DNA of 49,119 nucleotides from a phage, in the sequence record PZ465523.1, one strand, 5' to 3'. Under the pieces are notes generated by a model. It saw nothing but the letters and a program-made list of their open reading frames with translations, searched no databases and was not told where the DNA came from. Each line of letters opens with the position of its first letter. Within the stretch, counting starts at the first letter, position 1. Positions 11,597 through 28,549 of the stretch are shown here, in pieces. Position numbers and translations under genes: made by a program.

Positions 11597-11623
11597 TATC
11601 TCACCAAAACGAGAGGACTAAAA

Positions 11624-12337: not shown

Positions 12338-12585
12338 TGAACGAGAAAATGATTCCTGTTAAGTTAACAGATCAAGGTTTATGGCTACTTTATCGAGCTA
12401 CGTGCTGCGAAATTATGGAGCGAAACGGATTGACTCAGGATGTTATTGGTTGCGATCTGTGGGAGTTCACTAGTTCTCTTGATATGTCTTTCGATGAGAT
12501 AAAAAATGAACATATAGAGAGTTGGCCTTCAATTATCCAGAAAGACGTAGAGGAACTTAAAGCAGATACGATCGCGCAGCACTAA
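12334..12585 (+). CDS. Hypothetical protein
   Basis: ATG overlapping Dam stop; stop codon lies inside the next box. Confidence 0.5.
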   Translation: MMNEKMIPVKLTDQGLWLLYRATCCEIMERNGLTQDVIGCDLWEFTSSLDMSFDEIKNEHIESWPSIIQKDVEELKADTIAQH

Positions 12586-12619
12586 TTGCTAAAAATACCC
12601 GGCGAAAGTCGGGTATAGT
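12578..12619 (+). promoter_or_regulatory. Box-type promoter: AGCACTAATTGCTAAAA, 22 nt, TATAGT
   Basis: Hairpin TACCCG-gcgaaagt-CGGGTA inside the spacer. Confidence 0.55.
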
Positions 12620-12651
12620 TATTTCATTGAGACGAAACGAGGAATCAAAAG

Positions 12652-12861
12652 ATGGCACGCATTAACGCAAACTTTTTCAATATCGCTCAACAGTCAGCAA
12701 AAATGGCTGTTCATATCACCAACAAGAAAGGCGGTAACTTTGATTGGGATATTGCTATGAACTTCCTTAAAATGGCTTATTACCTATGCTCAGTCAAAGA
12801 TGTTGAGTGTTTTATTGAAAGCGTGGAGAAACTAACCAATGCTGATAAAAAAACAAGGTAA
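12652..12861 (+). CDS. Hypothetical protein
   Basis: RBS GAGGAA; ORF-track ORF. Confidence 0.5.
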   Translation: MARINANFFNIAQQSAKMAVHITNKKGGNFDWDIAMNFLKMAYYLCSVKDVECFIESVEKLTNADKKTR

Positions 12862-13111
12862 ACGAGAGGTTTGGGAGCACGCGAAGGAATGCGGAATATC
12901 AGACGATATAGCACTAATAGCAAAATATTTCGATATAAAGGATGTTAGCATCATCTCAAACGGAAAGATTTCATTTATGGAAGATATGCCGAGAAAAATG
13001 CATAGAGTGCCAGCCACCCCATCACTTGAGTTTTATCGTGAAGAAGGAAAGAGAATTGAGCGAGAACGAAAAAACGCAAAGAACAACAAGCCTTCCAGGC
13101 TTAAATATTAA
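12839..13111 (+). CDS. Hypothetical basic protein
   Basis: Lys/Arg-rich C-terminus; overlaps frame of 12942..13343. Confidence 0.45.
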   Translation: MLIKKQGKREVWEHAKECGISDDIALIAKYFDIKDVSIISNGKISFMEDMPRKMHRVPATPSLEFYREEGKRIERERKNAKNNKPSRLKY

Positions 13112-13343
13112 CTCAGATGACTACCAGACAATATGGATTGGGAAAAAGCAGGTTAAGCAAATCCCTTTCTCTGACTGGTTGCCACCTGACTTTGTTAATG
13201 TGCTTTGCACTATCGGTATCGAGCAGGAGTTGCATATAGGTTACTACTCACCAGGCAGAAACAGTATGATGCTTGAGGTTGACGGAAAACTTGTTGAGTT
13301 TAAACATGCTGATCTAGGATTCTGGTTAAAGGCTGTGGCATGA
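12942..13343 (+). CDS. Hypothetical protein; only the part after 13111 looks protein-like, start unresolved
   Basis: Frame has no ATG after 13111; possible +1 frameshift fusion with 12839..13111. Confidence 0.35.
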   Translation: MLASSQTERFHLWKICREKCIECQPPHHLSFIVKKERELSENEKTQRTTSLPGLNINSDDYQTIWIGKKQVKQIPFSDWLPPDFVNVLCTIGIEQELHIGYYSPGRNSMMLEVDGKLVEFKHADLGFWLKAVA

Positions 13344-13421
13344 AACTTTATTTTGCTGTAGTATTAACACCGCTAATTTAATTTTCATTAATGTATTTCA
13401 TTATCATGTAAGGATTAAAAT

Positions 13422-14573
13422 ATGTCACAAGCTAAAATCACCACCGAGCAACTTATCGAAGAGCGCATGAACGGCCTCACACTTCGCGAGATCGCGGAAA
13501 AGTACGGTATGCACATTCGCACTGTTGAAGCGCGCCATGCCAAGCTGGCAAAAGAAGGTCATTTCCACGGTAACGAGCATGTTGCTAAAAACGTGCCCGA
13601 GGGATTCATGGTAAAAGGCACGTCGACGATGATTCGAGGTGATGGGACCGAGGTAGTGCGCTGGGTAAAAACCGATCAGGACCGTGAGAAGATTGCAGCA
13701 ATGATGGAAGCGGCGCGCATTGCATTCTGTGAAGACCTGCCGCGAGCAAAGCCAACCGAGTTACTAACCTCGCAAGGGCTTACTACAGCTATGGGTAAGC
13801 TGGCACTATATCCGGTATTCGACCTGCACATTGGCGCGCTTGCTCACAAGCATGAATGCGGAGAGAACTACTCTACCGACGTAGCTGAAAAAGTGCTTGG
13901 CGACTTCTTCAATTACGCGATCGATATTGCTCCTAAAGCAGAGAAAGCTGTTCTGTTAATCGGCGGTGACTTCCTTCACTCTGACGGTCTTGATGCTGTT
14001 ACCCCGGCAAGCGGTCACGTTCTGGATCAGGATTCACGATACGCAAAATTGGTGCATGTTGCGATCCGTTCGGTGCGTCGCGCTATCGACAAAATGCTTA
14101 TGAAACACAAAGAAGTCGAGGTTCAGATTATTGAAGGGAACCACGACCAGGCCGGGATGATTTGGCTACGCGCTGCAATGTCGGCATATTATGAAGACGA
14201 GCCGCGAGTATTCGTTGACGTTAGCCCTATGATTCTGCATAAGACTCGATGGGGAAACACCTTATTGGGATACACTCACGGGCACACTATGAAAAAGGCA
14301 GACACGCGACTTGCAGCGATGGCGGCAGACTTCCGTGCAGACTTCGGAGAGAGCAAGTATGTGTATACTCATAGCGGTCACTGGCATCATCAGACAATCA
14401 CTGAACACTCGTTAGGTATCGATGAGGTTCACGGTCAGTTAGGAGCGAAGGATGCATACGCAGCACGAGGCGGGTGGCGCTCATATCGTCAGGCGGCGGT
14501 AATCGTTTACGACAAGCAATTTGGTGAGATAGGTCGATTCATCTACCGTCCAGAAATGACAGGATCGCATTAA
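13422..14573 (+). CDS. Metallophosphoesterase (calcineurin-like) with N-terminal HTH-like segment
   Basis: GDFLHSD, GNHD and GHTH-like metal-binding motifs. Confidence 0.6.
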   Translation: MSQAKITTEQLIEERMNGLTLREIAEKYGMHIRTVEARHAKLAKEGHFHGNEHVAKNVPEGFMVKGTSTMIRGDGTEVVRWVKTDQDREKIAAMMEAARIAFCEDLPRAKPTELLTSQGLTTAMGKLALYPVFDLHIGALAHKHECGENYSTDVAEKVLGDFFNYAIDIAPKAEKAVLLIGGDFLHSDGLDAVTPASGHVLDQDSRYAKLVHVAIRSVRRAIDKMLMKHKEVEVQIIEGNHDQAGMIWLRAAMSAYYEDEPRVFVDVSPMILHKTRWGNTLLGYTHGHTMKKADTRLAAMAADFRADFGESKYVYTHSGHWHHQTITEHSLGIDEVHGQLGAKDAYAARGGWRSYRQAAVIVYDKQFGEIGRFIYRPEMTGSH

Positions 14574-14607
14574 TTGCTAAAAATGCCCGAACGGATTCGG
14601 GTATAGT
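14568..14607 (+). promoter_or_regulatory. Box-type promoter: GCATTAATTGCTAAAA, 22 nt, TATAGT
   Basis: Gene stop TAA embedded in box; hairpin CCCGAA-cgga-TTCGGG in spacer. Confidence 0.55.
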
Positions 14608-14638
14608 GACCACATCTAAAACAAAGAGGATGCATATC

Positions 14639-14815
14639 ATGAAACGAGTTAAGTGCATCCGAAATGACTCAAAAACACTTCCATTCCGCGTAAATCAGAT
14701 TTATAGTGTTGGTTATGATTTCGGTGGTGGATTGTTTGAGATTTACGACGGGCAAGGTTCAGTAATCCAAGCACCTCTGAAAGGTAGCTATCTGGAATTT
14801 ATTGCGATAGATTAA
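14639..14815 (+). CDS. Small protein of the Cys beta-hairpin repeat family
   Basis: ATG after RBS AAAGAGG; VKCIRNDSKTLPFRVNQIYSV motif. Confidence 0.55.
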   Translation: MKRVKCIRNDSKTLPFRVNQIYSVGYDFGGGLFEIYDGQGSVIQAPLKGSYLEFIAID

Positions 14816-14836
14816 CAATATCATTCATCACCTTAC

Positions 14837-14869
14837 AGGCTGGCATGATTTACATGCTGGCCTTTTTGC
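14837..14869 (+). terminator. Rho-independent terminator
   Basis: 11-bp stem with two G-U pairs, 5-nt loop, then UUUUU. Confidence 0.65.
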
Positions 14870-14933
14870 GTTGTATCAATTAAATTTGAAGGTTAAAATC
14901 GACTCACTTGTTCAAAAAATATATGGTGAGATT

Positions 14934-15149
14934 ATGAAAGAATTTTTAACAGCAGCTACGTCAAGCACGGGCGGTGCTTCGTTGGTAGGGGCAGCGACAG
15001 GTCAACTTTATATTGCTGGCGCTACATTCATTTGCTTTCTGCTTTTTGGCGCTTGGGGAGCGTACTGGAAGTATCGCGATAGCAAGGCAATTCAGGAAGC
15101 GTTAAACGATGGCGATCTAAATAAGGCGCTTAAGATCAGGGGGAGATAA
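14934..15149 (+). CDS. Holin, single-TMD, possibly pinholin-like
   Basis: 71 aa with hydrophobic helix [21 protein letters not shown]; immediately upstream of endolysin. Confidence 0.55.
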
Positions 15150-15637
15150 TGAGTTTAAAAAATAACGTTATAGGAGCATCGATCGGGGCAGCTTTGACGT
15201 TGACACCTACCCTACTGGAACGAATCGAAGGTATAGAATACGAGGTTTATTACGATATCGCCGGAGTCCCTACCGTATGCAGCGGAATAACCGGGCCGGA
15301 CGTCATACCTGGTAAGAAATACACTAAGCGAGAATGCGATGCTTTGTTGATAAAACACATCGGCGTTGCTCAGAGATACGTAGACAAAAAGGTGAATGTT
15401 GATATTCCGGTAACGATGCGCGCGTCATTGTATAGCTTTACTTTCAACGTTGGTACTGGCGCGTTCGGATCTTCTACAATGCTTAAGCTAATAAATCAGG
15501 GTAAGCACAGGGAAGCGTGCAATCAGTTATGGCGATGGGTATACTACTACAACCCAAAAACCAAAAAGCGCGAAGTGTCTAGAGGACTCAAGAACAGACG
15601 CTCTGAAGAATACGCGTATTGCGTTAAGGAATTATGA
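15149..15637 (+). CDS. Endolysin, GH24 lysozyme family, with SAR-like N-terminal signal-anchor
   Basis: [23 protein letters not shown] catalytic region; Gly/Ala/Ser-rich weakly hydrophobic N-terminus. Confidence 0.7.
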
Positions 15638-16038
15638 TGAAACTGAAGAAAACATGCATTGCGATTGTAGTGGCTGTTGGTGTTATTTCTCTATCCTGTT
15701 GCTCGACGGCATCTGCCCTGAGCGGTTTAATCGGATCTAAACCTGAAGTTACAGCACAGATTGGAGAGGAGAACACAAAGCAATTAGCAGGAGTGACCGC
15801 AAAATCCGAAGATAAGCGAGATGTTAAAGTTGAAAAGTCCAATGTAGGAAAGGTTGACTCTTCCGTGAAGAAGTCAATTGAAGTTTCAACCATTCAGGCC
15901 AACACGGTTAACGCTGAAAGCATCACTGTTACAAAACCTGGGAACTGGTACGACGCTATCGCTGGCTGGACCCTCGTTCTCATTGGTCTGTTGCTGGTTT
16001 ATTTTTCACTTCGCAAGGACGAAAAAAAGGAGGCATAA
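15634..16038 (+). CDS. Unimolecular spanin-like lysis protein
   Basis: N-terminal lipoprotein-like signal ending LSCC plus C-terminal TMD; last gene of lysis cassette. Confidence 0.55.
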
Positions 16039-16053
16039 GCCTCCTTTTCTTTT
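16029..16053. terminator. Bidirectional terminator between convergent operons
   Basis: GGAGGC-ataa-GCCTCC stem with flanking A- and T-runs; spanin stop codon sits in the loop. Confidence 0.65.
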
Positions 16054-16267
16054 ATGCATCAGCCCACATGTAACTTTCGTTCGTGAGTTTTGCGTATTCG
16101 CGAACTTCAATTTCACAGGTGTCTACGTACATCTCAGCGACCTTTTTCTCATTCGCTACCGCTGATTCCTCGGTCCATCCATCAGCTTTGCTGTAGAGGG
16201 TAGGAATTTCACTTCTAGTGCCGTTAGAGTGATTGTAAACGCGAACTACTAAAAATTTGTTAGCCAT
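16052..16267 (-). CDS. Hypothetical protein (72 aa)
   Basis: ATG after RBS GAAGGA; first gene downstream of box at 16330. Confidence 0.5.
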   Translation of the reverse strand: MANKFLVVRVYNHSNGTRSEIPTLYSKADGWTEESAVANEKKVAEMYVDTCEIEVREYAKLTNESYMWADA

Positions 16268-16304
16268 GATATTTTCCTTCAGGTCGTTTCGTTTCGATGA
16301 AACA

Positions 16305-16350
16305 AATATACCCGATACGAGATCGGGTGTTTTAACAAAAAGTGCTATTT
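16305..16350 (-). promoter_or_regulatory. Box-type promoter: AAATAGCACTTTTTGTTAAAA, 22 nt, TATATT
   Basis: Hairpin CCCGAT-ctcgt-ATCGGG in spacer. Confidence 0.55.
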
Positions 16351-16456
16351 GTATCTTTTTACGTGGAGAAGCAACTCCCCATCTTGGTCGCAAAGATCAT
16401 GCTCGCTGTCGCCGTTGGCTCTCATTGAAGTGAGTAGCAGGCTCAATAATCCTTGT

Positions 16457-16864
16457 TCAAATTCTTCTTTCGTAAGCTGGAGACTTGCGCACAATTCGAC
16501 GTTCCGATCTATCAACGTTTCTACGTTCGCCAAACAATTCCTCATCACTCATTTCTCCAATGTGCATCATTTCCCACGTATATCGATTGTTGTAGCCATC
16601 AATACACATCAGCTTCATCATTACCGGGCGCTTGATCTTTCCCTTGCACCAGTAAAATCCATCATTACGATCCAAGTAACCCTCAGTCACGCAGCGTGCG
16701 CAAAACTCCTTAGATAGCGCGCTTGTAAATTCACGGTGAGTCATCCCGGCGGCCTTAGCAAATCGCTCACTTTCCTTGTGGGCGTATATAAATTTCGCTA
16801 TGTGCTGCCGAGTGTATTTGTCGTAACCTTCGCAGAACCTGAACAGATCCAAAAGAAGAAGCAT
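16457..16864 (-). CDS. Hypothetical Cys-containing protein (135 aa)
   Basis: ORF-track ORF with ATG start 4 nt after upstream stop. Confidence 0.5.
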   Translation of the reverse strand: MLLLLDLFRFCEGYDKYTRQHIAKFIYAHKESERFAKAAGMTHREFTSALSKEFCARCVTEGYLDRNDGFYWCKGKIKRPVMMKLMCIDGYNNRYTWEMMHIGEMSDEELFGERRNVDRSERRIVRKSPAYERRI

Positions 16865-16868
16865 ATTT

Positions 16869-18437
16869 TTAACCCATCAGTCGAGGATTTATGAAAACAA
16901 TATCATCAATACGGCAAGTGTAATTCATCTCTTCTAGCGTGATTAGAAGACTGTCGATTCGCTCAGATACTTTCTGTTGACCGTTGAACGGAGTAACGTT
17001 CCGGCACTTTGCAACAATACTATGAATAGGTGCGCGGCCTTTGTTCTTCTTCGCGATCTCAGTGATAACATCAATCAGCTTACGAGATTCAGCCTCATCA
17101 CCAGCATACCCGGCAGCGCTGGCAGACGACAGATAAGTCCTGGAAAGCTCATTGAAGATCATGATCGCTTCCTGCATTGTTTCAAGGTCAATCTCACGGT
17201 TGGAACGGTTCGGTGATTCACCCTCCCAATTCTTGATCGTGTGGAGAACCGAAGCAATACGCAAAGCGTGCTTATCGAACTTGCCGAGATGACCGCGAAG
17301 CATTGAGTGAGAGTATTTCCCCCCGGCGGCGAAATCAGGCTCCATCGCCTGGCGCGCAAGGTTTAATTCACGCATAGCATTACGGCTCACAGAGAGAACA
17401 ACGTTGTCCTCCTTCATGATGTTGTGCACGAGTCTGTAATATTTGCTAACCAGTCCGCGATCGACTTCCTTATACAGCGCATCGCCATTTTCATCACAAA
17501 GAATACGAGTACCTAAAAGCGGCTCCTCGCGAACCAACAAGAAACGTTCGGATACACCTATACCGCGCTGGCCTGCATCCATGATGCCCTTGATTGTTTC
17601 ATCCTGCGCAATGACGCAGATCGAACCGACCGGGCAAAGAGATAAGTTGTTGTCCTGATTTGAACGCGCGACCTCCATATGGTTTTTATCCCACGCCTTA
17701 AGGATAAGCTCACTGTTAGATTTCTTATCTGAACCGCCATACGTAAGCCCGAGCAATGTATTGATTGCCGTTGCCTCGTCAGATATTACGGAAAAGTGAC
17801 CTTGCACTGCCGCCACTTTCGCAAGACCTTCAGGTGTAGGATCTGATACAGCGAAAACAATATCAGCCATCTTCTTGATCTTCTCTTCCAGCTTTTCTTT
17901 GTCCTCGTACAGAGCCGCCGTCGTGTTGCCTTTAGGATCGTTTTTTATTTCCTTCTCGACCTGACGTAGCTGACTGGTTAAACGGATACGTTCCTTTTTG
18001 CGCTCTTCATTCAGTCGCTGAATCTCCGCACGCATAGGTGTAATCGCCGCTGAGTTAATCGCTGATTTACCTGTTGATGGTGGCTGACTGATTACCATGT
18101 AAAGCGCTGTCGGCTGTTCTTCTCCATGATATTGCACCCAAAACTTCCCGAGCATCGCGGCTGATATGCAACCGATAAAATGAGCATACGCGGATGAAAC
18201 CGGGAACTGGACTGATTCAGCTTTTGCTTTTGCATATTCGAATACCAGGTTATCGCCACCTAACGAAATCAGAGGGAACTTATCGTTTCCGCTGTTGATA
18301 TCGATCGGATCTTGCCAAAAAGAAACTGAATCCCCGTAACTGTTTTCACGAATTGCGATCGCCACCGGATTCACTCCAGTGCTATTTGCGATCTCAATAA
18401 TTTGTTGGTAATTCAGTTTTGGCTTAATGTTAAACAT
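16869..18437 (-). CDS. Large early protein, possibly replication-associated; function unresolved
   Basis: 523 aa; start set at ATG 18437 after RBS AAGGAG; no clear Walker A. Confidence 0.6.
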   Translation of the reverse strand: MFNIKPKLNYQQIIEIANSTGVNPVAIAIRENSYGDSVSFWQDPIDINSGNDKFPLISLGGDNLVFEYAKAKAESVQFPVSSAYAHFIGCISAAMLGKFWVQYHGEEQPTALYMVISQPPSTGKSAINSAAITPMRAEIQRLNEERKKERIRLTSQLRQVEKEIKNDPKGNTTAALYEDKEKLEEKIKKMADIVFAVSDPTPEGLAKVAAVQGHFSVISDEATAINTLLGLTYGGSDKKSNSELILKAWDKNHMEVARSNQDNNLSLCPVGSICVIAQDETIKGIMDAGQRGIGVSERFLLVREEPLLGTRILCDENGDALYKEVDRGLVSKYYRLVHNIMKEDNVVLSVSRNAMRELNLARQAMEPDFAAGGKYSHSMLRGHLGKFDKHALRIASVLHTIKNWEGESPNRSNREIDLETMQEAIMIFNELSRTYLSSASAAGYAGDEAESRKLIDVITEIAKKNKGRAPIHSIVAKCRNVTPFNGQQKVSERIDSLLITLEEMNYTCRIDDIVFINPRLMG

Positions 18438-18466
18438 CACAATAAACTCCTTAGTTGACGGTGTGA

Positions 18467-18512
18467 ATGATACACCGCCAATGTTACACGCGTTTTGCAA
18501 AAAGTGCTATTG
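18467..18512 (-). promoter_or_regulatory. Box-type promoter: AATAGCACTTTTTGCAAAA, 22 nt, TATCAT
   Basis: Hairpin CGGTGT-atcattc-ACACCG downstream. Confidence 0.5.
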
Positions 18513-18513
18513 G

Positions 18514-18930
18514 TTATAAGTATTTGGCCTCAAAGGTTGTGCCGTCAGCAATACTAAAACCAATCTCTTCGCGGAATAATGTCCAGCGGCAACCGTCCTC
18601 ATCAAAGATGTAACCAGCCACTCCACCGAGAGCGCGACCGCTTTCCACCTGGTAACGCTTGCCAACTTTGAATGATTTTTTCATTGGGTTGCGATGGTCA
18701 AGCCCGGTACACTTGAGTGTTTTGGTTTTAAGTTCAGTGAATTTTGCGAAGAAGATTTCATCAGATCCGTGAATCTGTAATTCATCGTGCTTATCAAGTT
18801 TTAAATACTTACCGCACTTTAACTTAACCTCGCGAGTGCCATCGTAGCGTTCTCGACCTTTGTACATGTTGTTAACTTCAAATCCTGTGATTTTGTCTGC
18901 TGAAGTGCATTTAAGTTTGATGGATTTCAT
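18514..18930 (-). CDS. Cys beta-hairpin repeat family protein (2-3 repeats)
   Basis: Repeats IKLKCTSADKITGFEV / VKLKCGKY / LKCTGLDHRNPMKKSFKVGKRYQV; start at ATG 18930 after CAGGAG. Confidence 0.6.
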   Translation of the reverse strand: MKSIKLKCTSADKITGFEVNNMYKGRERYDGTREVKLKCGKYLKLDKHDELQIHGSDEIFFAKFTELKTKTLKCTGLDHRNPMKKSFKVGKRYQVESGRALGGVAGYIFDEDGCRWTLFREEIGFSIADGTTFEAKYL

Positions 18931-18966
18931 TGCGTTCACTCCTGATTGGTTATCTTGAATAAGGCC

Positions 18967-19013
18967 ACTTTATCAAATGACATTACGTCAATATTAACAA
19001 ATCGTGCTATTTA
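18967..19013 (-). promoter_or_regulatory. Box-type promoter: AAATAGCACGATTTGTTAA, 22 nt, TAAAGT
   Basis: Read on minus strand. Confidence 0.5.
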
Positions 19014-19223
19014 CCAGGGAATATAATCGTCGTCGTCATTATCAACAATATCATCGCCGGGCATCTCGAAGTCGGGATTATATTCACTTTCTGCGTCCAT
19101 ATCCATATTCCCTAGCGCGTCGTCAAGCGTAATTTCTTTATATGCAACCTTGATACACCATTCCGCACTAAGCCCGGCATCGAGCGCGGCAAAATAACGA
19201 GTCCAGAAATTATCCTGTTCCAT
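19011..19223 (-). CDS. Small acidic protein (70 aa)
   Basis: C-terminus DDIVDNDDDDYIPW. Confidence 0.5.
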   Translation of the reverse strand: MEQDNFWTRYFAALDAGLSAEWCIKVAYKEITLDDALGNMDMDAESEYNPDFEMPGDDIVDNDDDDYIPW

Positions 19224-19226
19224 TAA

Positions 19227-19451: not shown

Positions 19452-19484
19452 TTTTAATTCCTTTATTTCGCTTGGTGTGGGAGT

Positions 19485-19530
19485 AATATACCTTACTCCC
19501 TATTTATTGTCTTTAGCAATTAGTGCTATC
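19485..19530 (-). promoter_or_regulatory. Box-type promoter: GATAGCACTAATTGCTAAA, 23 nt, TATATT
   Basis: Hairpin GGGAGTAA-ggtatat-TTACTCCC. Confidence 0.55.
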
Positions 19531-19989: not shown

Positions 19990-20005
19990 TATTCCCCCTA
20001 ACCAG

Positions 20006-20569: not shown

Positions 20570-20600
20570 GATTCTTTCCTCGTTTGCTGTTGATGGGATG

Positions 20601-20645
20601 ACTATACCAGCCATCCCGGATGCGCGTTTAGCAAAAAGTGCTATC
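20601..20645 (-). promoter_or_regulatory. Box-type promoter: GATAGCACTTTTTGCTAAA, 22 nt, TATAGT
   Basis: Hairpin GGGATG...CATCCC overlapping the -10. Confidence 0.55.
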
Positions 20646-20646
20646 C

Positions 20647-20751: not shown

Positions 20752-20756
20752 AATTA

Positions 20757-20984: not shown

Positions 20985-21015
20985 TTGGTCATTTCTCTGA
21001 TTGGTTGATGTTTTA

Positions 21016-21060
21016 AATATACCCCGATCACCTTCGGGGCGTTTAGCAATTCGTGCTATT
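21016..21060 (-). promoter_or_regulatory. Box-type promoter: AATAGCACGAATTGCTAAA, 22 nt, TATATT
   Basis: Hairpin CCCCGA-aggtga-TCGGGG in spacer. Confidence 0.55.
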
Positions 21061-21394: not shown

Positions 21395-21432
21395 TTTCCT
21401 GCTCCTGATGTGTATCTCGTTTCGATGAGGTA

Positions 21433-21478
21433 ATTATGCCAAACTACCCCGATCGAGTTTTAACAAAAAGTGCTATTT
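21433..21478 (-). promoter_or_regulatory. Box-type promoter: AAATAGCACTTTTTGTTAAAA, 22 nt, CATAAT
   Basis: Box encodes the Dcm C-terminus NSTFC and its stop. Confidence 0.55.
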
Positions 21479-22164: not shown

Positions 22165-22197
22165 TGCAAATCTCCTGCTGATTGGTTGATGTGATGA

Positions 22198-22242
22198 ATC
22201 ATACCCTGCCAACATAGCTAAGTCGTTAGCAAAAAATGCTAT
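22198..22242 (-). promoter_or_regulatory. Box-type promoter variant: AATAGCATTTTTTGCTAAC, 23 nt, TATGAT
   Basis: Immediately upstream of Dcm leader CAACCAATCAGCAGGAG. Confidence 0.5.
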
Positions 22243-22427
22243 TCCAATAGTTGCTCATTATTCCATCAATAGTGGAATAGTTGGAATAATTTTGATTGTG
22301 ATTGATTGCGAATGATTAAACGTGATTATTGCATTGTGTGCAACAGTTGGTTGATTTGTTGATGAGAATGCAATGATTGTGAGAGGGAGGATTTAGTGTT
22401 ACCCGGTTCGCTTGGTAGTCACCTCCA

Positions 22428-22447
22428 TTTTTAGCAAAAAGTGCTAT
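22428..22447 (-). promoter_or_regulatory. Box GATAGCACTTTTTGCTAAAA without a matching -10 at the usual spacing
   Basis: Distal-most box of the leftward arm, followed by hairpin GGAGG...CCTCC. Confidence 0.45.
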
Positions 22448-22856
22448 CCGTCTATATCTTCGTTGTAATTGTCGTAATAGTTGTATACTATCGGGGGTGT
22501 TACAAAATGGCCCCGAAGGGATGGGCCTATATATACTAAAATATCTATATATAATAATAAGATAGATAATATATATATATTTATTTATTATATTATATAT
22601 TGGTATGTAATCGGCGTAATAGGTGCAACCGCATTTTTGGAAGGTGGCATATATTTCAGGGTGCATAGTATAAAAAACATACTATTCCGCGCGTCGAAAT
22701 GGATGTGTGTGCTTTTATAGAAAAAGTCGGTTGCATCGGTTGCACTGGTTACAAAAATAAAAAATGCAGCTATAGACATTGACGCGCCTAGCCAGGTTGC
22801 TGTAACATGTTTTTCGGGGCGGCAAGTTACGCCCGTAGACAACGAGGTATAGACAA

Positions 22857-23432
22857 ATGAAAACTCAGCTTAAAGAAGTAACGGAATTCGAACTCAACTT
22901 GCCGGACTACATTCGCAAGGCGATTGAAAATCACCGTTCAGGGAGTGAGTTCTCAATCACCGGAAAGCAAATGGTAGCTATCTACGTGCATGAGCAAGCC
23001 GAGATCGTAAAGATCACTCAGGATGTTGAGCTAACCGAGGACCAGATTGATGAGGCTATCATTAACGAGTACACGTCGCGCTCAGCCTGGTTGCTCGAAC
23101 GACTCACCGCTTCGTATGTTTCCAATATCATCAAGCGCCACATGCTCAAGGTGCATAACAAGGCCGTGTCGGTTCGAATCAATCGCGATCAGGTGGATGG
23201 CGTGACGATATTCATCACTGAACTGGAAGGTGAGGAAGCAGAAAAGGTCATAGGCGAAGCGAAACAGGGAAAGAGAGGACGGAAGCGTAAGAGCGTAGCC
23301 GATGTGTTCAATGCGAAGGTTGAGGCGTTCAGAATCGATCTGAGAGAGTTTGAAGGAAGCAACATCTCGGTATCGGATCTCAATAAACTGGTGGAGCAAT
23401 TCCGCGCACATTTACTGGGTGAGGAGAAGTAA
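22857..23432 (+). CDS. Hypothetical early protein (191 aa)
   Basis: First gene of rightward early operon; acidic protein with Lys/Arg cluster KQGKRGRKRK. Confidence 0.55.
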   Translation: MKTQLKEVTEFELNLPDYIRKAIENHRSGSEFSITGKQMVAIYVHEQAEIVKITQDVELTEDQIDEAIINEYTSRSAWLLERLTASYVSNIIKRHMLKVHNKAVSVRINRDQVDGVTIFITELEGEEAEKVIGEAKQGKRGRKRKSVADVFNAKVEAFRIDLREFEGSNISVSDLNKLVEQFRAHLLGEEK

Positions 23433-23434
23433 TC

Positions 23435-23590
23435 ATGAACAAGAAGAATGAAGGCAAAAAGAGCATTAGCCGTCACTTGGACACGTTCAAGCTGGATACT
23501 AAAAAACTGAGCGCGAACCGCATTCAACTTAGTAGCATCAATGAGATCGTGCGCCAGATGAAAGCGCATATCGAAAAGTGTGGACTGTGA
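23435..23590 (+). CDS. Small basic protein (51 aa) not in ORF track
   Basis: Strong RBS GAGGAGAAG; ATG 2 nt after upstream stop. Confidence 0.45.
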   Translation: MNKKNEGKKSISRHLDTFKLDTKKLSANRIQLSSINEIVRQMKAHIEKCGL

Positions 23591-23603
23591 GCACTGAACG
23601 GTA

Positions 23604-23648
23604 AATAGCACTTTTTGTTAAAACCGGATCGGAATAACCTGGTATAGT
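23604..23648 (+). promoter_or_regulatory. Box-type promoter: AATAGCACTTTTTGTTAAAA, 22 nt, TATAGT
   Basis: Read directly; upstream of gene 23680..24168. Confidence 0.55.
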
Positions 23649-23679
23649 AACCCCATCGACAACGAACGAGGACGCAAAC

Positions 23680-24168
23680 ATAAAAATCAAATTACTTTGC
23701 ACTGGCGGTTACAAGGGATTCACCCGCAACCTGGAAGCAGACCCTATCGTGGTTGATGCGGTTAAGTGCGATTCCAGCACTGGAGGCTACCGCGTTAAGG
23801 TTGACGATCTGGTTAAAGCTGGCGTGTACGATCTTGACTATGGACTTTCGGTTAGCCCTGTATTTGGTACGGCTGACTTTAACGAGAATGACGGAACGAT
23901 GTTCTTCTTCGAATGGGAAGTTCAAGCAAATCCTAAGCCGCGCAAGGTTCGACTTCTCAGTAATGGCGGCTACCCGCTGCGACAAGGCTATGAGAACCGC
24001 ACATTCCCAGTTATCGTGGACTTTGAAGAAATTACTAGCAATCTGGCATACGTTAACGATGAGCAGTTGCGAGCCGTTGGATTTGTCGGCGGGATGAATA
24101 AAGAGACGCTTTGCTTCTTCCACTGTAACGCCGAGCCGTTCGATATTGAGTGCGAGTTAGTTTACTAA
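23680..24168 (+). CDS. Cys beta-hairpin repeat family protein; apparent ATA start (ORF-track GTG at 23749 is the alternative)
   Basis: Frame open from 23638; RBS CGAGGA + 7 nt + ATA aligns with leaders of neighbouring genes; repeats IKLLCTGGYKGF and VKCDSSTGGYRVKV. Confidence 0.5.
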   Translation: MKIKLLCTGGYKGFTRNLEADPIVVDAVKCDSSTGGYRVKVDDLVKAGVYDLDYGLSVSPVFGTADFNENDGTMFFFEWEVQANPKPRKVRLLSNGGYPLRQGYENRTFPVIVDFEEITSNLAYVNDEQLRAVGFVGGMNKETLCFFHCNAEPFDIECELVY

Positions 24169-24209
24169 GCACGAATTGTTAAAAGGGGATTTGTCCTGAC
24201 TGGTATAAT
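24166..24209 (+). promoter_or_regulatory. Box-type promoter: TAAGCACGAATTGTTAAAA, 22 nt, TATAAT
   Basis: Gene stop TAA is the first triplet of the box; hairpin GGGGATT...AATCCCC. Confidence 0.55.
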
Positions 24210-24239
24210 CCCCAAGTAAACCACTAAGAGGAAAGAGTT

Positions 24240-24737
24240 ATGTTGAAATTAAACGAGATTAAATTCCCTGTAGTTTTTAACACTATTAGCTGCGGAAAAA
24301 TAACCTGCCATAGCAAAGACCGTGCAACAGATTCGTCATTCAATGAGTGCCATCCGTCTATTGTTGGTAATCTCATTGAGCTTCATAACAAGCACAACCC
24401 TGATAACATCCCGTCTCTTCCATATTATGTTGAGTATGTTGGACCCGGCTGGAAGGCTGGTTGGAAAGTTGGTAGAGCAATCTTTCATTCGTCAAAGCCA
24501 GAAATCAAGCCATCGCTACAGTGCACTCAGATCGAGAACATGCCATTGAGCGCGACGCTAAAGGGAGTCCAGCTTGATAGCGAATCCTGGACCGAGATTA
24601 CCGCCACACCTAAAACTATTGAGGTGCACGATGATGTGGTGATTCTCCTGTTGCATTACGGCGGCTTTAAGCACAAGACTGTATCAGGTGAAATCAGCAT
24701 TAAGCGCGGAACGCTTGTACGCTACGAGGTGAAATAA
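24240..24737 (+). CDS. Hypothetical protein (165 aa)
   Basis: RBS AAGAGGAAAGAG; ATG start. Confidence 0.55.
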   Translation: MLKLNEIKFPVVFNTISCGKITCHSKDRATDSSFNECHPSIVGNLIELHNKHNPDNIPSLPYYVEYVGPGWKAGWKVGRAIFHSSKPEIKPSLQCTQIENMPLSATLKGVQLDSESWTEITATPKTIEVHDDVVILLLHYGGFKHKTVSGEISIKRGTLVRYEVK

Positions 24738-24886
24738 TGGCTGCATGGGTTTTGATTATCTTAATGAGCACCGGGCCGGATCACGTATACATGGAAAGTC
24801 AGCAATCATGCAACAAGGCTCGGGAAGTAATTGCAGAGAACAAGCCGTTCGGGTACGAAGTTAAAACAATGTGCGTTAAACGATAG
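24737..24886 (+). CDS. Small membrane protein (49 aa) not in ORF track
   Basis: ATG overlaps upstream stop; hydrophobic N-terminus; TAG stop is part of box. Confidence 0.45.
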   Translation: MAAWVLIILMSTGPDHVYMESQQSCNKAREVIAENKPFGYEVKTMCVKR

Positions 24887-24926
24887 CACTAATTGCTAAA
24901 CCTTCCGCAAGGCCATTTGATATAGT
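24883..24926 (+). promoter_or_regulatory. Box-type promoter: ATAGCACTAATTGCTAAA, 22 nt, TATAGT
   Basis: Hairpin AAGGCCA...TGGCCTT spanning the -10. Confidence 0.55.
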
Positions 24927-24966
24927 GGCCTTATTGAAGCAAGGCAACCAATCAGAGGAATCAGCT

Positions 24967-25173
24967 ATGGCTACACGACTAACTCAGTGGCAGATTTACG
25001 ACAAGGCATCACGCCTTCGTGAATCGCTTCGCGGACTGACGCCGAATGACCGAATGGAGATTATCGGGCACGCATTGCACGAACTCACGCCTCAGGACGT
25101 AATCTATCATTCATGCGGCAATAAATTCTGGAACGTAACATTCGAGGTAAAGAAAGATGAGCAAAACTCATAA
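24967..25173 (+). CDS. Hypothetical protein (68 aa)
   Basis: ATG after conserved leader CAACCAATCAGAGGAATCA. Confidence 0.5.
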   Translation: MATRLTQWQIYDKASRLRESLRGLTPNDRMEIIGHALHELTPQDVIYHSCGNKFWNVTFEVKKDEQNS

Positions 25174-25444
25174 GTTAAAAATTACCCCGGTCCATTTCAT
25201 CGGTGTAATGAACGGCACAAAAACGGCAGAGTTCCGCATTAATGACCGCAACTTCCAGCTTGGCGATATCCTGGAGCTATGCGAGTTCGATCGGGATGAG
25301 TTTACCGGGTGGGAAGTGCATGCCAGGGTATCCGATGTTACAGACGTGACTCCTTACATCAATCGCGGGTATGACGATCAAGGATGCGACTTCACGCAAT
25401 ACGTGATGTTGTCAATCAAGCCTTACAGGAAGGTTAGACCATGA
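25157..25444 (+). CDS. ASCH-domain-like protein
   Basis: GTKTAEFR matches the ASCH G-x-K-x-x-E-x-R signature. Confidence 0.5.
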   Translation: MSKTHKLKITPVHFIGVMNGTKTAEFRINDRNFQLGDILELCEFDRDEFTGWEVHARVSDVTDVTPYINRGYDDQGCDFTQYVMLSIKPYRKVRP

Positions 25445-26097
25445 AATTTGAGTGCGTATCAAGTAGCGGATCTGGTTTTAAGTGGGGAAAAACTTACAAA
25501 GGTGTTCGCGTAAATGATGACAGCTTCATCATTACTGATGAGAACGGTTGCAACGTGAACGTTGTACGGCGTCACGAATACCAGGAAATTTTCCTGCCTT
25601 ATGGCGGTAGCTCAAAATATATCTTCCATCGAATCGTGGATGGTGTTAAATTTAACGACGTAATCGAAGCAATCAACCAACTGCATAATAAAGAGGTAAA
25701 ATTTATGAAATTCGAATGTATCAGTGATAACACCAAAAAATTTACCGTTGGCAAAATCTACGACGTTCCTACTGAGCACGCAAAGCACACTGTAGCGCTG
25801 ACCGACGACGCGGGCCGCCACCGCATTGCAACCGTAACTCACAATGGCGAAGGTCTTCGCTGGAATAGCGGCGGCACTAAGTTCGCAACGTTCGGCAAGA
25901 AGAAGCAGAAATTTAATACCAGTCGAATCAAGGGCGGTTTCCGCATCGAACATGGTAAGATTCACAGCGTTCATCCAAGCGAAGTTGATGGTAAAGTCAA
26001 GCCTAAGCTGACCAACAAGGATATTGATAATCTGGCGAATCTGGCTATGGCTACCGTGCTTCTTATTTCTCTTATCGTGCTGTTTTTCGTAGTTTAA
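25441..26097 (+). CDS. Membrane-anchored protein with two tandem Cys beta-hairpin repeats
   Basis: Repeats MKFECVSSSGSGFKWGKTYKGV and MKFECISDNTKKFTVGKIYDV; C-terminal TMD. Confidence 0.6.
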   Translation: MKFECVSSSGSGFKWGKTYKGVRVNDDSFIITDENGCNVNVVRRHEYQEIFLPYGGSSKYIFHRIVDGVKFNDVIEAINQLHNKEVKFMKFECISDNTKKFTVGKIYDVPTEHAKHTVALTDDAGRHRIATVTHNGEGLRWNSGGTKFATFGKKKQKFNTSRIKGGFRIEHGKIHSVHPSEVDGKVKPKLTNKDIDNLANLAMATVLLISLIVLFFVV

Positions 26098-26254
26098 CTT
26101 AAAGTGGGAATCGTTCCTGAGCGGTTCCCTATTTTTATGAGGTGAATATAAATAGCTTTATGCCTGACTTTAAGAACTGGAAAAACGAACCTCCATCATT
26201 TCATGAGTTGTTATTCTGCCTGCTGGTTTTGACGCTATCTCTTAAGGGTGTTTT

Positions 26255-26473
26255 ATGGCTACTATCATGACAGCAGAAGATGCAGCACGCGACGCAGTGG
26301 AAGGGATGCGCCCAAATAGCTCCAGAATCGCCCACTACTACAAATCTGATGTGTCGGCAGTGCAATTGGTCCATGAGATTTTAAGGCTACCACAAGTCGA
26401 TTCAGCGCGCGTGGTGACGTGCTTAAAAAATTATTTTTGCATCACTATTAAAACGAATAGCACGAATTGCTAA
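26255..26473 (+). CDS. Hypothetical protein (72 aa)
   Basis: ATG start; C-terminus NSTNC encoded by the box. Confidence 0.45.
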   Translation: MATIMTAEDAARDAVEGMRPNSSRIAHYYKSDVSAVQLVHEILRLPQVDSARVVTCLKNYFCITIKTNSTNC

Positions 26474-26500
26474 AACCTATCAAGGGGAATGCGCTATGAT
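26456..26500 (+). promoter_or_regulatory. Box-type promoter: AATAGCACGAATTGCTAAAA, 22 nt, TATGAT
   Basis: Hairpin GGGGAAT-gcgctatg-ATTCCCC. Confidence 0.55.
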
Positions 26501-26530
26501 TCCCCTACACCAACAAACGAGGAATCACTA

Positions 26531-26890
26531 ATGAAACACTTAATTTGCATTGAAACGCCTAACGATGAATACACTCTTCACGGTATCGGAATGTTCAAAG
26601 GTCACTACATGACAGCAAGCATTCATGATGCGCGACTATGCGATGGCGATCTGATGATTATATCAAAAGAAGTAAATCCGTACATTATGCAGAATCTTGG
26701 CAATAACGAATATATGGCATACGGCTGCAACGCCGTGTACAAGCATATCAAGATCCGCAAGCGTGTCGTGCGTGCATTCAAGAAGATTGCAATGAAATAC
26801 TGGAAGATGAGCAAGAAGGACGCCGGACGCTGGCGCGCAATGTTGCTGACTCGTACTTCTATCGTAACGGTGAGTCCCGCTACTTCCTGA
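26531..26890 (+). CDS. Hypothetical protein; C-terminal region may continue in another frame
   Basis: RBS CGAGGAA; alternative frame 26707..26976 encodes a more protein-like tail ending SCW. Confidence 0.45.
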   Translation: MKHLICIETPNDEYTLHGIGMFKGHYMTASIHDARLCDGDLMIISKEVNPYIMQNLGNNEYMAYGCNAVYKHIKIRKRVVRAFKKIAMKYWKMSKKDAGRWRAMLLTRTSIVTVSPATS

Positions 26891-26974
26891 TCGATGAAAT
26901 TATGGAAAGCTACGGCGGCGACTTCAGCCAGTGTAGCTTTGACGATTGGGCTGATTATGAGATCAGTTGCTGGT

Positions 26975-27019
26975 AATAGCACGAATTGCTAAAACTTGCT
27001 CAAGGGCATTTGTTAGAAT
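26975..27019 (+). promoter_or_regulatory. Box-type promoter: AATAGCACGAATTGCTAAAA, 22 nt, TAGAAT
   Basis: Hairpin AAGGGCATT...AATGCCCTT. Confidence 0.55.
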
Positions 27020-27058
27020 GCCCTTCGTTGAGTTAAGCAACCAATCAGAGGAATCAAT

Positions 27059-27262
27059 ATGAAAACTATTACCGGAATGAGCAACGAAACGAGAACGCAG
27101 AACGTTAACATGCTAATCGGGATGGCTGACGATATTCAGAATAGCCATGTCGTTATTGATTCATGCAATCAGACTCGTGAGAGTAAATTTGAATCATCCG
27201 GCTACAAAATTGTTGAAGAAGAATTAACCATCAAAATCATTCGCGTACAGGAGAAAGCATAA
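27059..27262 (+). CDS. Hypothetical protein (67 aa)
   Basis: ATG after leader CAACCAATCAGAGGAATCA. Confidence 0.5.
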   Translation: MKTITGMSNETRTQNVNMLIGMADDIQNSHVVIDSCNQTRESKFESSGYKIVEEELTIKIIRVQEKA

Positions 27263-27795
27263 TGGATAAAATCACAATTTGGGGTCAGACAATCAACCTG
27301 TTTCTCGGCACTCGCCGCGTGGCAATCTTTGACTTCGACGGAACACTGAGTGACGGCTCAAAACGTCTTCACCTGCTACCGACGAAAGATTTGCACTTAA
27401 CGGAAAGCTGGTCTGAGTTCAACCGCGCGGCAATATTTGACAATCCTATCCGTAGTACGATTGATGTGATGAACTCTATGTTTGCCGCTGGGTATCATGT
27501 GATTATTTTAACCGGGCGAAGCGATGAGGTGCGTTACGCATCTGAGTTATGGCTTAAGCATCACGGCGCTCGATATGATTACTTAGTCATGAGGCCGCAT
27601 ACCGACAACCGCAAAGACACGGTAATGAAAGAAGAGGCTGTGCGCGCGATCGGCATTGATAACATTCTGGCGGCCTGGGATGACTCACCGCAAATTATTC
27701 CATTATTCCGATCGCTTGGAATAACCACGTATGCCGTAGTTGACTATGGCGATAACGTTCACGACCATTTAAAATCTCACGGGGTGGATGAGTGA
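27262..27795 (+). CDS. HAD-superfamily phosphatase (polynucleotide 3'-phosphatase-like)
   Basis: DxDGT motif FDFDGTL near N-terminus; later TGR and DD motifs; start overlaps upstream stop. Confidence 0.65.
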   Translation: MDKITIWGQTINLFLGTRRVAIFDFDGTLSDGSKRLHLLPTKDLHLTESWSEFNRAAIFDNPIRSTIDVMNSMFAAGYHVIILTGRSDEVRYASELWLKHHGARYDYLVMRPHTDNRKDTVMKEEAVRAIGIDNILAAWDDSPQIIPLFRSLGITTYAVVDYGDNVHDHLKSHGVDE

Positions 27796-27907
27796 ACCTA
27801 TACGAATTTATTGCAGCACATCCTGTATTGACGGTTATCATCCTGTTAATCATCAATCACACTATCATCAATGTGGCAAAATTATTTTTAGGGAGATACT
27901 AACATGA
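27788..27907 (+). CDS. Cys/His-rich 39-aa peptide between phosphatase and kinase
   Basis: ATG overlaps phosphatase 3' end; stop TGA overlaps kinase ATG (ATGA); sequence MSEPIRIYCSTSCIDGYHPVNHQSHYHQCGKIIFREILT. Confidence 0.4.
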   Translation: MSEPIRIYCSTSCIDGYHPVNHQSHYHQCGKIIFREILT

Positions 27908-28476
27908 AAACAGCTATCATTTTAAACGGCGCACCTAGAGCGGGAAAAGACACTATCGGATGCATCCTGGCTGACACTTACGATCACGTAGCGCTCCGCA
28001 GCTTCAAGGCTCCAATGTTTGAGATTGCCCGGGCAATCCTGGGTGAAGCTAACTACGAGTATTTCATGTTCTTGTATGATGACCGTCGATATAAAGAAGA
28101 GCCAGCATCAATCCTGAACGGTAAAAGCCCGCGCCAGTTTATGATCTGGATTAGCGAGGAAGTCATCAAGCCGCAGTTCGGAAATCGCTTCTTCGGTATG
28201 CGAGCGGAAAGCGAGGTGAAAGAGTCGAACTCCCTTTCGGTATTTACTGATGGTGGATTCAAAGACGAAATCTTGCAGATGATTGAAGGTGATATCCAAG
28301 TCAAGCTATGCCGCATACATCGCAACGGCTGCAACTTCGATAACGACAGTCGAGATTATATCTACTTGGATGATATGATCGGTGTCAACGGTTATCAGGA
28401 ATGTGATTTCTTCTCTGTCGAAGGTCATCCAGAAATTACCGCTCAGCACATAGCCGCCACGTTCATCAATAAATAG
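27904..28476 (+). CDS. P-loop nucleotide or polynucleotide kinase
   Basis: Walker A NGAPRAGKDT near N-terminus; stop TAG inside box. Confidence 0.6.
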   Translation: MKTAIILNGAPRAGKDTIGCILADTYDHVALRSFKAPMFEIARAILGEANYEYFMFLYDDRRYKEEPASILNGKSPRQFMIWISEEVIKPQFGNRFFGMRAESEVKESNSLSVFTDGGFKDEILQMIEGDIQVKLCRIHRNGCNFDNDSRDYIYLDDMIGVNGYQECDFFSVEGHPEITAQHIAATFINK

Positions 28477-28516
28477 CACGAATTGCTAAAACGTCGATGG
28501 GGTGATTTGATATAGT
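28472..28516 (+). promoter_or_regulatory. Box-type promoter: AATAGCACGAATTGCTAAAA, 22 nt, TATAGT
   Basis: Read directly; kinase stop embedded. Confidence 0.55.
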
Positions 28517-28549
28517 TACCTCATCGACAACCAAGAGAGACAAATCGAA

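Follow-up and report, generated by a model that had tools for sequence, protein, structure and literature searches.

Short direct repeats upstream of genes have been described in phage TLS (PMC11447400, 2024). They are 21 nucleotides (nt) long, read aaATAGCACnnnTTGnTAAAA, lie ~76 nt upstream of start codons, and also occur in T1, Rtp and Rogue1. Their function was left open by these authors, with a stoperator, an enhancer site or an UP element as candidates, and in the sections of the paper drawn on here a fixed -10, an identity with the marbox and embedded hairpins are not mentioned. The same sections state that no polymerase or sigma gene has been reported in T1-like phages. The present analysis concerns a phage sequence of 49,119 nt (record PZ465523.1), called the window when the whole stretch is meant. 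It contains the same element with the same consensus and orientation, here as the box of a promoter module that also carries a hairpin. It is suggested that this hairpin is a 3'-end structure of the message of the upstream gene, acting as a stabiliser or as a leaky terminator, a reading that we put at a probability of about 0.55.

Several known systems resemble parts of this arrangement. In the middle promoters of T4 a MotA box replaces the -35, and the activator and co-activator, MotA and AsiA, are encoded by the phage. The promoters in the window likewise lack a -35 and have an activator box at a fixed distance from a good -10, in tandem across the early and middle region; unlike those of T4, however, their box is a predicted site for a host regulator, and no AraC-like protein was found in the searches given below. 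In the early promoters of N4 the virion RNA polymerase uses DNA hairpins that are conserved in sequence. Here, too, phage promoters carry an inverted repeat that can form a hairpin, but this repeat is free in sequence, selected on the sense strand and dependent on the upstream gene. Stem-loops without a U-tract that stabilise upstream mRNA against 3' exonucleases are known from intercistronic elements of the REP type and from the 3' hairpins of T7 processing sites. With these the hairpins in the window share their intercistronic position 3' of a cistron, free sequence with conserved pairing, and A/U-rich unstructured flanks, whereas they lack the repeated sequence of REP elements, have stems too short for RNase III and are nested in a promoter.

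Hairpins in the promoter modules

The whole window resembles T1-like phages (Drexlerviridae, Tunavirus), with 90-97% identity to Eco_BIFF, phiL, Shfl1, SA32RD and others, and its 49.1 kb correspond to about one entire T1-like genome. A search of the window gave ~25 copies of the box on both strands, with the consensus aATA-GCAC-[T/G][A/T][A/T]T-TG[C/T]TAAA, 24 of which make up the set used for folding and spacing statistics. A -10 hexamer starts exactly 20 nt past the last A of GCACnnnnTGyTAAA in ~20 of these 24, the same distance as the 22 nt from TTGCTA to the -10 that had been given in an earlier note on this DNA. The hexamers are good ones (TATAGT, TATAAT, TATATT and similar) with a G at -14, a conserved C-A ~7 nt past the -10 is the expected transcription start, and the next start codon follows 63-80 nt past the G of GCAC. 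No -35 hexamer is found at the proper distance from the -10 of the box promoters. Canonical sigma-70 promoters (TTGACA-N17-TATAAT) are not enriched between 11000 and 30500 and if anything depleted, with 26 against 36 +/- 6 in shuffles, in agreement with the only three sigma-70-like promoters reported for TLS (PMC11447400). Box and -10 together would form an activator-dependent promoter without a -35, and the order of elements in a junction would be upstream stop codon, 20-bp activator box, 20-nt spacer, -10, ~25-nt leader and next start codon.

A clear stem-loop, made by a different G+C-rich inverted repeat each time, is present in ~17 of 22 promoter copies. All six inverted repeats cited in the earlier note were found within 0-1 nt of where it had placed them, and nine junctions folded as RNA gave -11.9 to -23 kcal/mol (z -2.0 to -6.9). 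Over the 24 copies, the 40 nt past the box have a mean minimum free energy (MFE) of -11.35 kcal/mol, against -5.3 for random 40-mers of the same genome. The corresponding z is -14 for shuffles, -12.5 for column shuffles and -11.7 to -12.7 for arm-swap chimeras, in which the 5' part of one promoter is combined with the 3' part of another. Since column shuffles and arm-swap chimeras fold far worse, the pairing is specific to each copy and is not an effect of composition. The arms are rich in G on the 5' side and in C on the 3' side, as would also be expected if the hairpins were a by-product of a G-rich spacer followed by a C-rich discriminator, but position-preserving shuffles and chimeras fold far worse (z -12 to -22), and an artefact of base composition was ruled out by these column-shuffle and arm-swap controls. 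The hairpin is the sole consistent structure in the averaged pairing profile of whole junctions. Its longest stem has 15 pairs (28493-28528), and nine of 21 tetraloops are GNRA. A search of the whole window with Rfam 15 at gathering thresholds gave no matches, and folding shows no significant hairpin in the copies at 22239(-), 23608(+), 12911(+), 37506(-) and 41270(-).

Two geometries can be distinguished. In class A the stem lies wholly in the spacer, with ~7 bp, a loop of 4-5 nt and a 3' arm ending (..CGGG/TA) at the hexamer. In class B the stem of ~10 bp brackets the -10, so that the hexamer falls in the loop and the C-rich discriminator makes up the 3' arm, which at times reaches past the presumed start. 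The earlier note had placed every hairpin between box and -10, which is correct for about half of them; the rest bracket or overlap the -10, among them four of its own six examples, in which the 3' arm overlaps or follows the -10 and the hexamer is in the loop. It had also given 12578-28516 as the range, and hairpins are indeed found there, but the range is not a limit, as hairpin modules also occur at 4767, 8591, 9046 and 11556.

The comparison with related phages covered 140 loci (1.39 Mb) from T1, a Klebsiella Webervirus, SA32RD and IMG/VR contigs. Promoters were collected by pattern (box with at most two mismatches, a -10 score threshold and a 20-nt gap, a procedure that may let in some false positives), which gave 476 distinct box-(20 nt)-(-10) promoters in 145 clusters at 75% identity. 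The non-independence of related sequences is dealt with by the clustering together with slid or chimera controls. T1 and the Klebsiella phage show the same architecture with different stem sequences. Among the 145 non-redundant promoters 47 are of class A, 50 of class B and 4 intermediate, with 44 lacking a clear stem, and orthologous junctions may carry either class. The cluster representatives fold with -10.25 kcal/mol, against -6.7 to -7.6 for arm-swap chimeras (z -18 to -22).

The earlier note had staked its idea on changes that preserve base pairing in the junctions of related phages, and such covariation is found: 34 pair types are changed on both sides, against 2-6 when the 3' partner is slid by 1-3 columns. 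In 42 orthologue families with 363 predicted pairs, 97% of the cells are paired, and column variation is 0.225 at paired and 0.389 at unpaired positions. As an example, in the 28 sequences of the AAGGCCA..TGGCCTT family 98.7% are paired, five of eight pairs change on both sides, one pair occurs as six pair types, and the covariation score is 0.429, against 0.05-0.09 when slid. The hairpins are under selection for pairing, with their sequence left free. Across relatives, many junctions have just one flank in common, the upstream one in 316 pairs and the downstream one in 367, and the cassettes are thus joints of mosaic recombination.

Strand, upstream gene and message end

A pairing that is kept in DNA on both strands and one that is kept in RNA differ in the mismatches that they allow, since every sense-strand G.T corresponds to an A.C when the opposite strand is read. 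A strand-neutral stem finder that penalises all mismatches equally was applied to the non-redundant promoters of the relatives and returned 91 stems. Their internal mismatches are 29 G.T or T.G, no A.C or C.A, and 8 others; 29 G.T against no A.C means that pairing is kept only on the sense strand of the flanking genes. Sense RNA also folds better than antisense in 103 representatives, against 40 with the reverse. The earlier note had left the choice between an RNA and a cruciform structure, and of these the RNA is favoured by this test and the cruciform rejected. Several class A hairpins are followed, on the opposite strand, by TTTT(T)AGCAA, and two of them come up in a simple terminator scan (14601-, 19479+), so that cruciform palindromes or antisense terminators might be considered. 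Either would need the other strand to pair, at odds with the mismatch counts, and many hairpins lie 8-11 nt from the A-run. Together with the by-product of composition treated above, these explanations are hardly credible. A cruciform or palindromic operator was ruled out by the mismatch counts and by arm sequences that differ between copies and orthologues, and an antisense terminator (the reverse complement of a class A hairpin, then TTTTAGCAA) by the same counts and the distance of many stems from the A-run.

The RNA in question is probably that of the upstream gene. Transcription from the box promoter probably starts ~7 nt past the -10, and because of this start the promoter's own transcript would lack the 5' arm of the hairpin, which would thus be present only in read-through RNA from upstream. 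When a co-directional open reading frame (ORF) of at least 45 amino acids ends at the box, the mean MFE is -11.5 (n=108), against -6.9 when there is none (n=31; p=1.4e-4), a contrast that may be inflated by false-positive boxes in the second set. The stop codon is the TAG at -2 in 57 of the 108 cases. Within the window, ~14 of 24 copies have the end of the upstream ORF inside the box or beside it, with TAG at -2, TAA at +4 or +11, or TAA/TGA at -9 to -3, and the C-termini NSTNC (26460) and NSTFC (21473) that the earlier note had read there are correct. The antisense copies in the late region, 37506(-) and 41270(-), are also without a hairpin. The hairpin begins further downstream when the upstream stop codon lies later: with TAA at +11 there are no class A and 8 class B hairpins, otherwise 38 A and 28 B (Fisher p=0.002). 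Such a shift is expected if the stem has to clear the terminating ribosome. Dependence on a co-directional ORF, tracking of the stop codon and sense-strand pairing all support the proposal of the earlier note that the hairpin sits at the 3' end of the upstream message.

Where processing or inefficient termination leaves a 3' end that is shielded from exonucleases, a stem-loop without a U-tract is typical, and for this reason a role as stabiliser or leaky terminator is favoured. The promoter would leave only spacer and discriminator free, and the phage would write a G+C-rich stem-loop of ~7-10 bp, at most 15, into these positions. Most likely the hairpin would block 3'-to-5' exonucleases after read-through RNA has been cut, or has ended, in the A-rich leader, which is unstructured, and the copies that abut the -10 (with a tail UAUAGU...) may also be weak, leaky terminators. 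Each small gene would in this way have a discrete, stable message and a promoter of its own at which transcription starts anew.

The records of T1 (RefSeq NC_005833) and SA32RD (OL960578) list several of the hairpins as rho-independent terminators, and it might be argued that they are just that, efficient terminators which overlap promoters by chance. In addition to these annotations and to TransTermHP/WebGeSTer, this explanation, which is nonetheless quite improbable, can call on the likeness to such terminators (including the 'transcripton' annotations of T1). The hairpins have what a rho-independent terminator has as a G+C-rich sense-strand stem-loop downstream of a gene, with ~7-10 bp, often a GNRA loop and a position just past the stop codon, and the -10 of class A (TATAGT/TATTAT) makes a partly U-rich tail. 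They differ in being without a U-tract and in their nesting within the next promoter, either in its spacer or around its -10. The tail score 3' of the stem is 1.44 in class A, where the tail is the -10 itself, and 0.38 in class B, against 0.74 for random sequence and 4.61 (range 2.9-5.2) for the late-region terminators of T1, which have runs of seven T, no box, and are in this unlike the promoter hairpins. The T content of the discriminator is much the same in the two classes (0.27 in A, 0.24 in B), where a U-tract selected in class A should have raised it; a simple scan for a hairpin plus T-tract recovers three of ~20 promoter hairpins, and terminator-like sites are not enriched in the region (19 against 17.7 expected). 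As the canonical U-tract is absent, efficient intrinsic termination is unlikely.

A true tract of six T does occur in one module, 8534..8594 (-), which lies at the gp23/primase junction and has its marbox at 8575-8594 with the TAA stop of gp23 inside, its -10 TAACAT at 8551-8556 and a hairpin at ~8538-8570 that brackets the -10 (-17.3 kcal/mol). The stem is followed by TTTTTT with a tail score of 4.99, and this copy, 8591(-), is the sole one that is also a canonical intrinsic terminator. A T-run of 5-6 is kept at this junction in relatives even with a wholly different stem sequence, and the hairpin is annotated as a terminator in T1 and SA32RD.

The hairpin could also serve the downstream gene. 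Read-through RNA would then be cut in the A/U-rich box, for example by RNase E, and the hairpin would protect the new 5' end or mark the processing site. The RNA of the box has an A+U content of 69% and borders the stem on its 5' side, the downstream flank is inherited together with a hairpin as frequently as the upstream one, and selection on the sense strand and covariation fit equally well. However, the primary transcript of the downstream gene's own promoter lacks the hairpin, so only the read-through fraction would be protected, and the shift of the hairpin with the upstream stop is more naturally explained by clearance of the ribosome where the upstream gene ends. A classical RNase III site is an extended duplex of about two helical turns, for which the stems (~7 bp in class A, ~10 bp in class B, 6-15 bp overall) are too short. 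A downstream role is therefore held to be unlikely.

Several points weigh against the preferred reading of a 3'-end structure, in addition to the possible inflation mentioned above. A clear stem is missing in ~30% of the non-redundant promoters, and the spacer is kept in 38% of both the upstream-only and the downstream-only pairs, so that linkage does not favour the upstream gene. No transcriptome, map of transcription start sites or transcript 5' or 3' ends of a T1-like phage was found in the literature searched. A transcription-associated C-to-T bias on the non-template strand could add to the excess of G.T, but in our judgement it would not yield 29:0. DNA hairpins, too, tolerate G.T, so the strand test fits folding of one DNA strand as well and cannot separate RNA from a hairpin in non-template DNA. 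Finally, the divergent promoter 9046(+) between gp23 and the helicase gene has no co-directional gene upstream and still keeps a conserved, sequence-variable inverted repeat. Its module, 9043..9096 (+), consists of the marbox at 9043-9062, the -10 TATTAT at 9081-9086 and an A+T-rich repeat, ACGTTTAC..GTAAACG, at 9063-9096 around the -10 (-9.6 kcal/mol); in orthologues the same junction carries a different stem, TTCGTTT..AAACGAA (L024/L027). This repeat is an exception and may be of another kind, perhaps an operator, maybe that of gp23. The gp23 gene (8578-9030, -) has a sub-threshold match to a Cro-like helix-turn-helix (HTH) domain (P22_Cro, E 5e-5).

The last two points bear on a further explanation, that the inverted repeat is a promoter element at the level of DNA, in which a hairpin forms in the non-template strand on unwinding of the spacer and -10 and tunes initiation, for example by holding the -10 in the loop or by aiding a distortion induced by the activator. 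In class B the loop is exactly the -10 hexamer, and at a different promoter MarA is reported to disturb base pairing beside its site (PMC12781870). Class A, in contrast, lies wholly upstream of the -10, in DNA that is double-stranded in open complexes, and as A replaces B at orthologous junctions, one mechanism would have to suit both geometries. The hairpins are weak or absent without a preceding co-directional gene and track the upstream stop codon, which is unexpected for an element intrinsic to the promoter, and the host micF promoter with identical geometry does without such a repeat. A role in DNA is thus decidedly unlikely, and the hairpin molecule is probably RNA rather than single-stranded non-template DNA.

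The box as a marbox

The marbox consensus stated in a MarA chromatin immunoprecipitation sequencing study (Sharma et al., PMC5684230) is 5'-gcactaattgctaaa-3'. This 15-mer has three exact copies in the window and GCACGAATTGCTAAA has five; in other words, GCAC[T/G]AATTGCTAAA occurs eight times exactly (three T, five G), with ~25 near matches, and the T form is the published consensus. Examples of copies with the marbox consensus are 12579-12593, 19512-19526(-), 24886-24900 and 26460-26474. Three phage boxes are identical to the MarA-bound E. coli sites at yneO, grxA/ybjC and pheP (PMC5684230). On the side of the host, micF is a class II SoxS promoter whose structure was solved by cryo-electron microscopy; the centre of its box is at -41.5 (PMC9638938). 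In its sequence, found with 100% identity in 5,375 E. coli genomes, GCACTGAATGTCAAA is separated by 20 nt from TAGAAT. The phage box is oriented in the same way, is likewise 20 nt from its -10, and has its centre at ~-41. By consensus, orientation and spacing the phage box is thus a predicted marbox, that is, the binding site of a class II MarA/SoxS/Rob promoter.

With promoters of the micF type those of the phage share marbox consensus, orientation, 20-nt gap and lack of a -35; they differ in belonging to a virulent phage, in their number (~22 per genome, mostly at or near consensus) and in their hairpins. The micF spacer folds with an MFE of 0.0 and has no structure, which marks the hairpin as something added to this type of promoter and not inherent in it. 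No MarA/SoxS-like protein was found by tblastn with MarA and SoxS as queries, and Pfam, run on nine early proteins with most other ORFs not scanned, found no AraC-like activator and only the sub-threshold HTH of gp23. With no MarA/SoxS-like protein found in the phage, the activator would most simply be one of the host, namely MarA, SoxS or Rob, the last of which is constitutive. No paper that links the marbox with T1-like phages was found in the literature searched.

Some boxes stand apart from the junction modules. At 30308-30322(+), between a strong terminator (30263-30280 plus a run of seven T) and the ribosome-binding site of the small terminase gene, lies a box identical to the E. coli pheP MarA site; being without a properly spaced -10, it is by its sequence a candidate activator site without a promoter at the entry of the late operon. 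The box at 22430-22444(-), in or near an ORF of 116 amino acids (22316-22666), also has no -10 and may be a decayed promoter or a bare binding site. A near-consensus box at 7505-7519(+) is opposite to the surrounding tail fibre and primase genes (both -); its only -10 (TACGAG) is a poor one, and a terminator in reverse complement comes after the box. Two box-plus-(-10) units without hairpins, 37490-37509(-) and 41254-41273(-), are oriented opposite to the late structural genes, which they could transcribe in antisense; T1 has a conserved copy of the second at 18847(-), between the major tail gene and the one that follows.

Single junctions and wider meaning

Class A modules occur on both strands. 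At 11553..11599 (+) the marbox (11553-11572), with the TAG stop of the upstream ORF inside, is followed by TGCCGG..CTGGCA at 11573-11592 (one G.U) and the -10 CATTAT/TATTAT at 11591-11599. The marbox of 12576..12619 (+), at 12576-12595, is the exact consensus GCACTAATTGCTAAA and has a TAA stop inside; its hairpin (12595-12616, -14.8 kcal/mol, z -3.9) has a GAAA tetraloop and is annotated as a terminator in T1 (39998-40024), and the -10 TATAGT is at 12614-12619. A TAA also lies inside the marbox of 14564..14607 (+), at 14564-14583, with CCCGAA..TTCGGG at 14583-14604 (-11.9 kcal/mol) and TATAGT at 14602-14607, and here orthologues carry other stems (ACCCGC..GCGGGT in T1). On the minus strand, 16305..16348 has its marbox at 16329-16348, ACCCGAT..ATCGGGT at 16310-16328 and TATATT at 16305-16310, and 21016..21059 has its marbox at 21040-21059, CCCCGA..TCGGGG at 21021-21040 (-12.4 kcal/mol) and TATATT at 21016-21021.

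Among the class B modules of the minus strand, 18455..18510 (marbox 18491-18510) has a hairpin at 18455-18481 (-13.6 kcal/mol) with the -10 TATCAT (18467-18472) in the loop; T1 shows exchanges of G.U to A-U and to U.G, and in the SRT8-like L016 the stem is shifted. In 18955..19010 (marbox 18991-19010, -10 TAAAGT at 18967-18972) the hairpin at 18955-18991 is weaker (-9.8) than in relatives (-14.2 in T1). The module 19479..19529 has an exact consensus marbox (19510-19529) and GGGAGTA..TACTCCC at 19479-19500 (-12.8 kcal/mol, z -4.3) with TATATT in the loop. At 20595..20644 (marbox 20625-20644, -10 TATAGT at 20601-20606) the hairpin is GGGATG..CATCCC at ~20595-20617 (-14.9 kcal/mol, z -3.3), and one relative (L007) has a class A hairpin in its place. 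The marbox 21457-21476 of 21422..21476 holds the TAA stop of the ORF of 251 amino acids whose protein ends in NSTFC; the -10 is CATAAT (21433-21438) and the hairpin, which contains a G.U, spans 21422-21456 (-15.9 kcal/mol).

On the plus strand, the class B module 4764..4814 directly follows the TAA stop of an exonuclease VIII (recE-like) ORF and has its marbox at 4764-4783, TATAAT at 4801-4806 and GAGGTG..CACCTC at 4793-4814 (-12.3 kcal/mol). In 24166..24213 (marbox 24166-24185, -10 TATAAT at 24204-24209) the stem GGGGATT..AATCCCC at 24185-24213 (-14.0 kcal/mol) has a compensatory counterpart in SA32RD, GGTGATT..AATCACC. The module 24883..24939 combines an exact consensus marbox (24883-24902, TAG inside) and TATAGT at 24921-24926 with a hairpin at 24902-24939 (-16.0 kcal/mol, z -4.1), whose core AAGGCCA..TGGCCTT is the covariation family A1 described above. 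In 26457..26506 the marbox (26457-26476) contains the TAA stop of the protein ending in NSTNC and is followed by GGGGAAT..ATTCCCC at 26483-26506 (-12.9 kcal/mol, z -3.9) around TATGAT (26495-26500). The hairpin of 26976..27037 (marbox 26976-26995, -10 TAGAAT at 27014-27019) lies at 26995-27037 with the core AAGGGCATT..AATGCCCTT (-17.0 kcal/mol, z -4.0). The strongest hairpin is that of 28473..28528 (marbox 28473-28492 with TAG inside, -10 TATAGT at 28511-28516), where the 15 pairs of 28493-28528 include G.U and give -23.0 kcal/mol (z -6.9).

Two modules show the promoter without a hairpin. In 22198..22242 (-), with the marbox at 22223-22242 and TATGAT at ~22198-22203, the z is +0.7. The T1 counterpart of this copy, 22239(-), is the first promoter of the leftward operon, and the lack of a hairpin is a negative case that fits a structure of the upstream message. 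In the marbox promoter 23605..23648 (+) the hairpin is broken (-4.4 to -4.7 kcal/mol). The 5' half of the spacer in 23605-23665(+) resembles T1 1453 and the 3' half with -10 and discriminator resembles T1 2272, so that, from the sequence, it looks like a recombinant of two T1 promoters in which the pairing was lost.

The leaders also contain a recurrent motif, AACCAATCAGRRG, which includes the Shine-Dalgarno sequence and occurs 11 times against 0.25 expected (for example at 24946-24958, 27039-27051, 18939-18951(-) and 41275-41287). A second type of leader is CATCGAAACGA, and such C/A-rich leaders may act as translational enhancers. In the late region of T1 (L003 8300-29700), which corresponds roughly to 30200-49119 and 1-3000 of the window, many gene junctions have a strong hairpin plus a run of seven T and no box, and 11 of these are annotated in T1. 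With such strong terminators, late transcription must read through many of them or restart by another route.

The hairpin modules overlay two signals on one stretch of 40 nt, with the promoter using box and -10 and the RNA using the free positions. It is worth noting that many of the 'rho-independent terminators' annotated in T1-like genomes are without the feature that makes terminators efficient. About 150 natural variants of the promoter-embedded hairpin are available for studies of spacer and discriminator structure and of read-through, and the marbox identity in the geometry of micF makes the function of the TLS repeat directly testable with strains and proteins that are already available. 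A broader proposal, tentative and somewhat short of an even chance, is that in T1-like phages (the Drexlerviridae of Escherichia, Shigella, Klebsiella and other enterics) almost all non-structural genes are driven by ~20 consensus class II marbox promoters, with MarA, SoxS or Rob borrowed from the host. Each promoter would be fused to a hairpin without a U-tract that closes the preceding message, and the portable cassette of stop, box, hairpin and -10 would be the recombination joint of a mosaic early region. Phage expression would then be wired to the response of the host to antibiotics, oxidative stress and bile salts and, if this is true, infection by a very common phage family would be linked to the multidrug and oxidative-stress regulon of its host.

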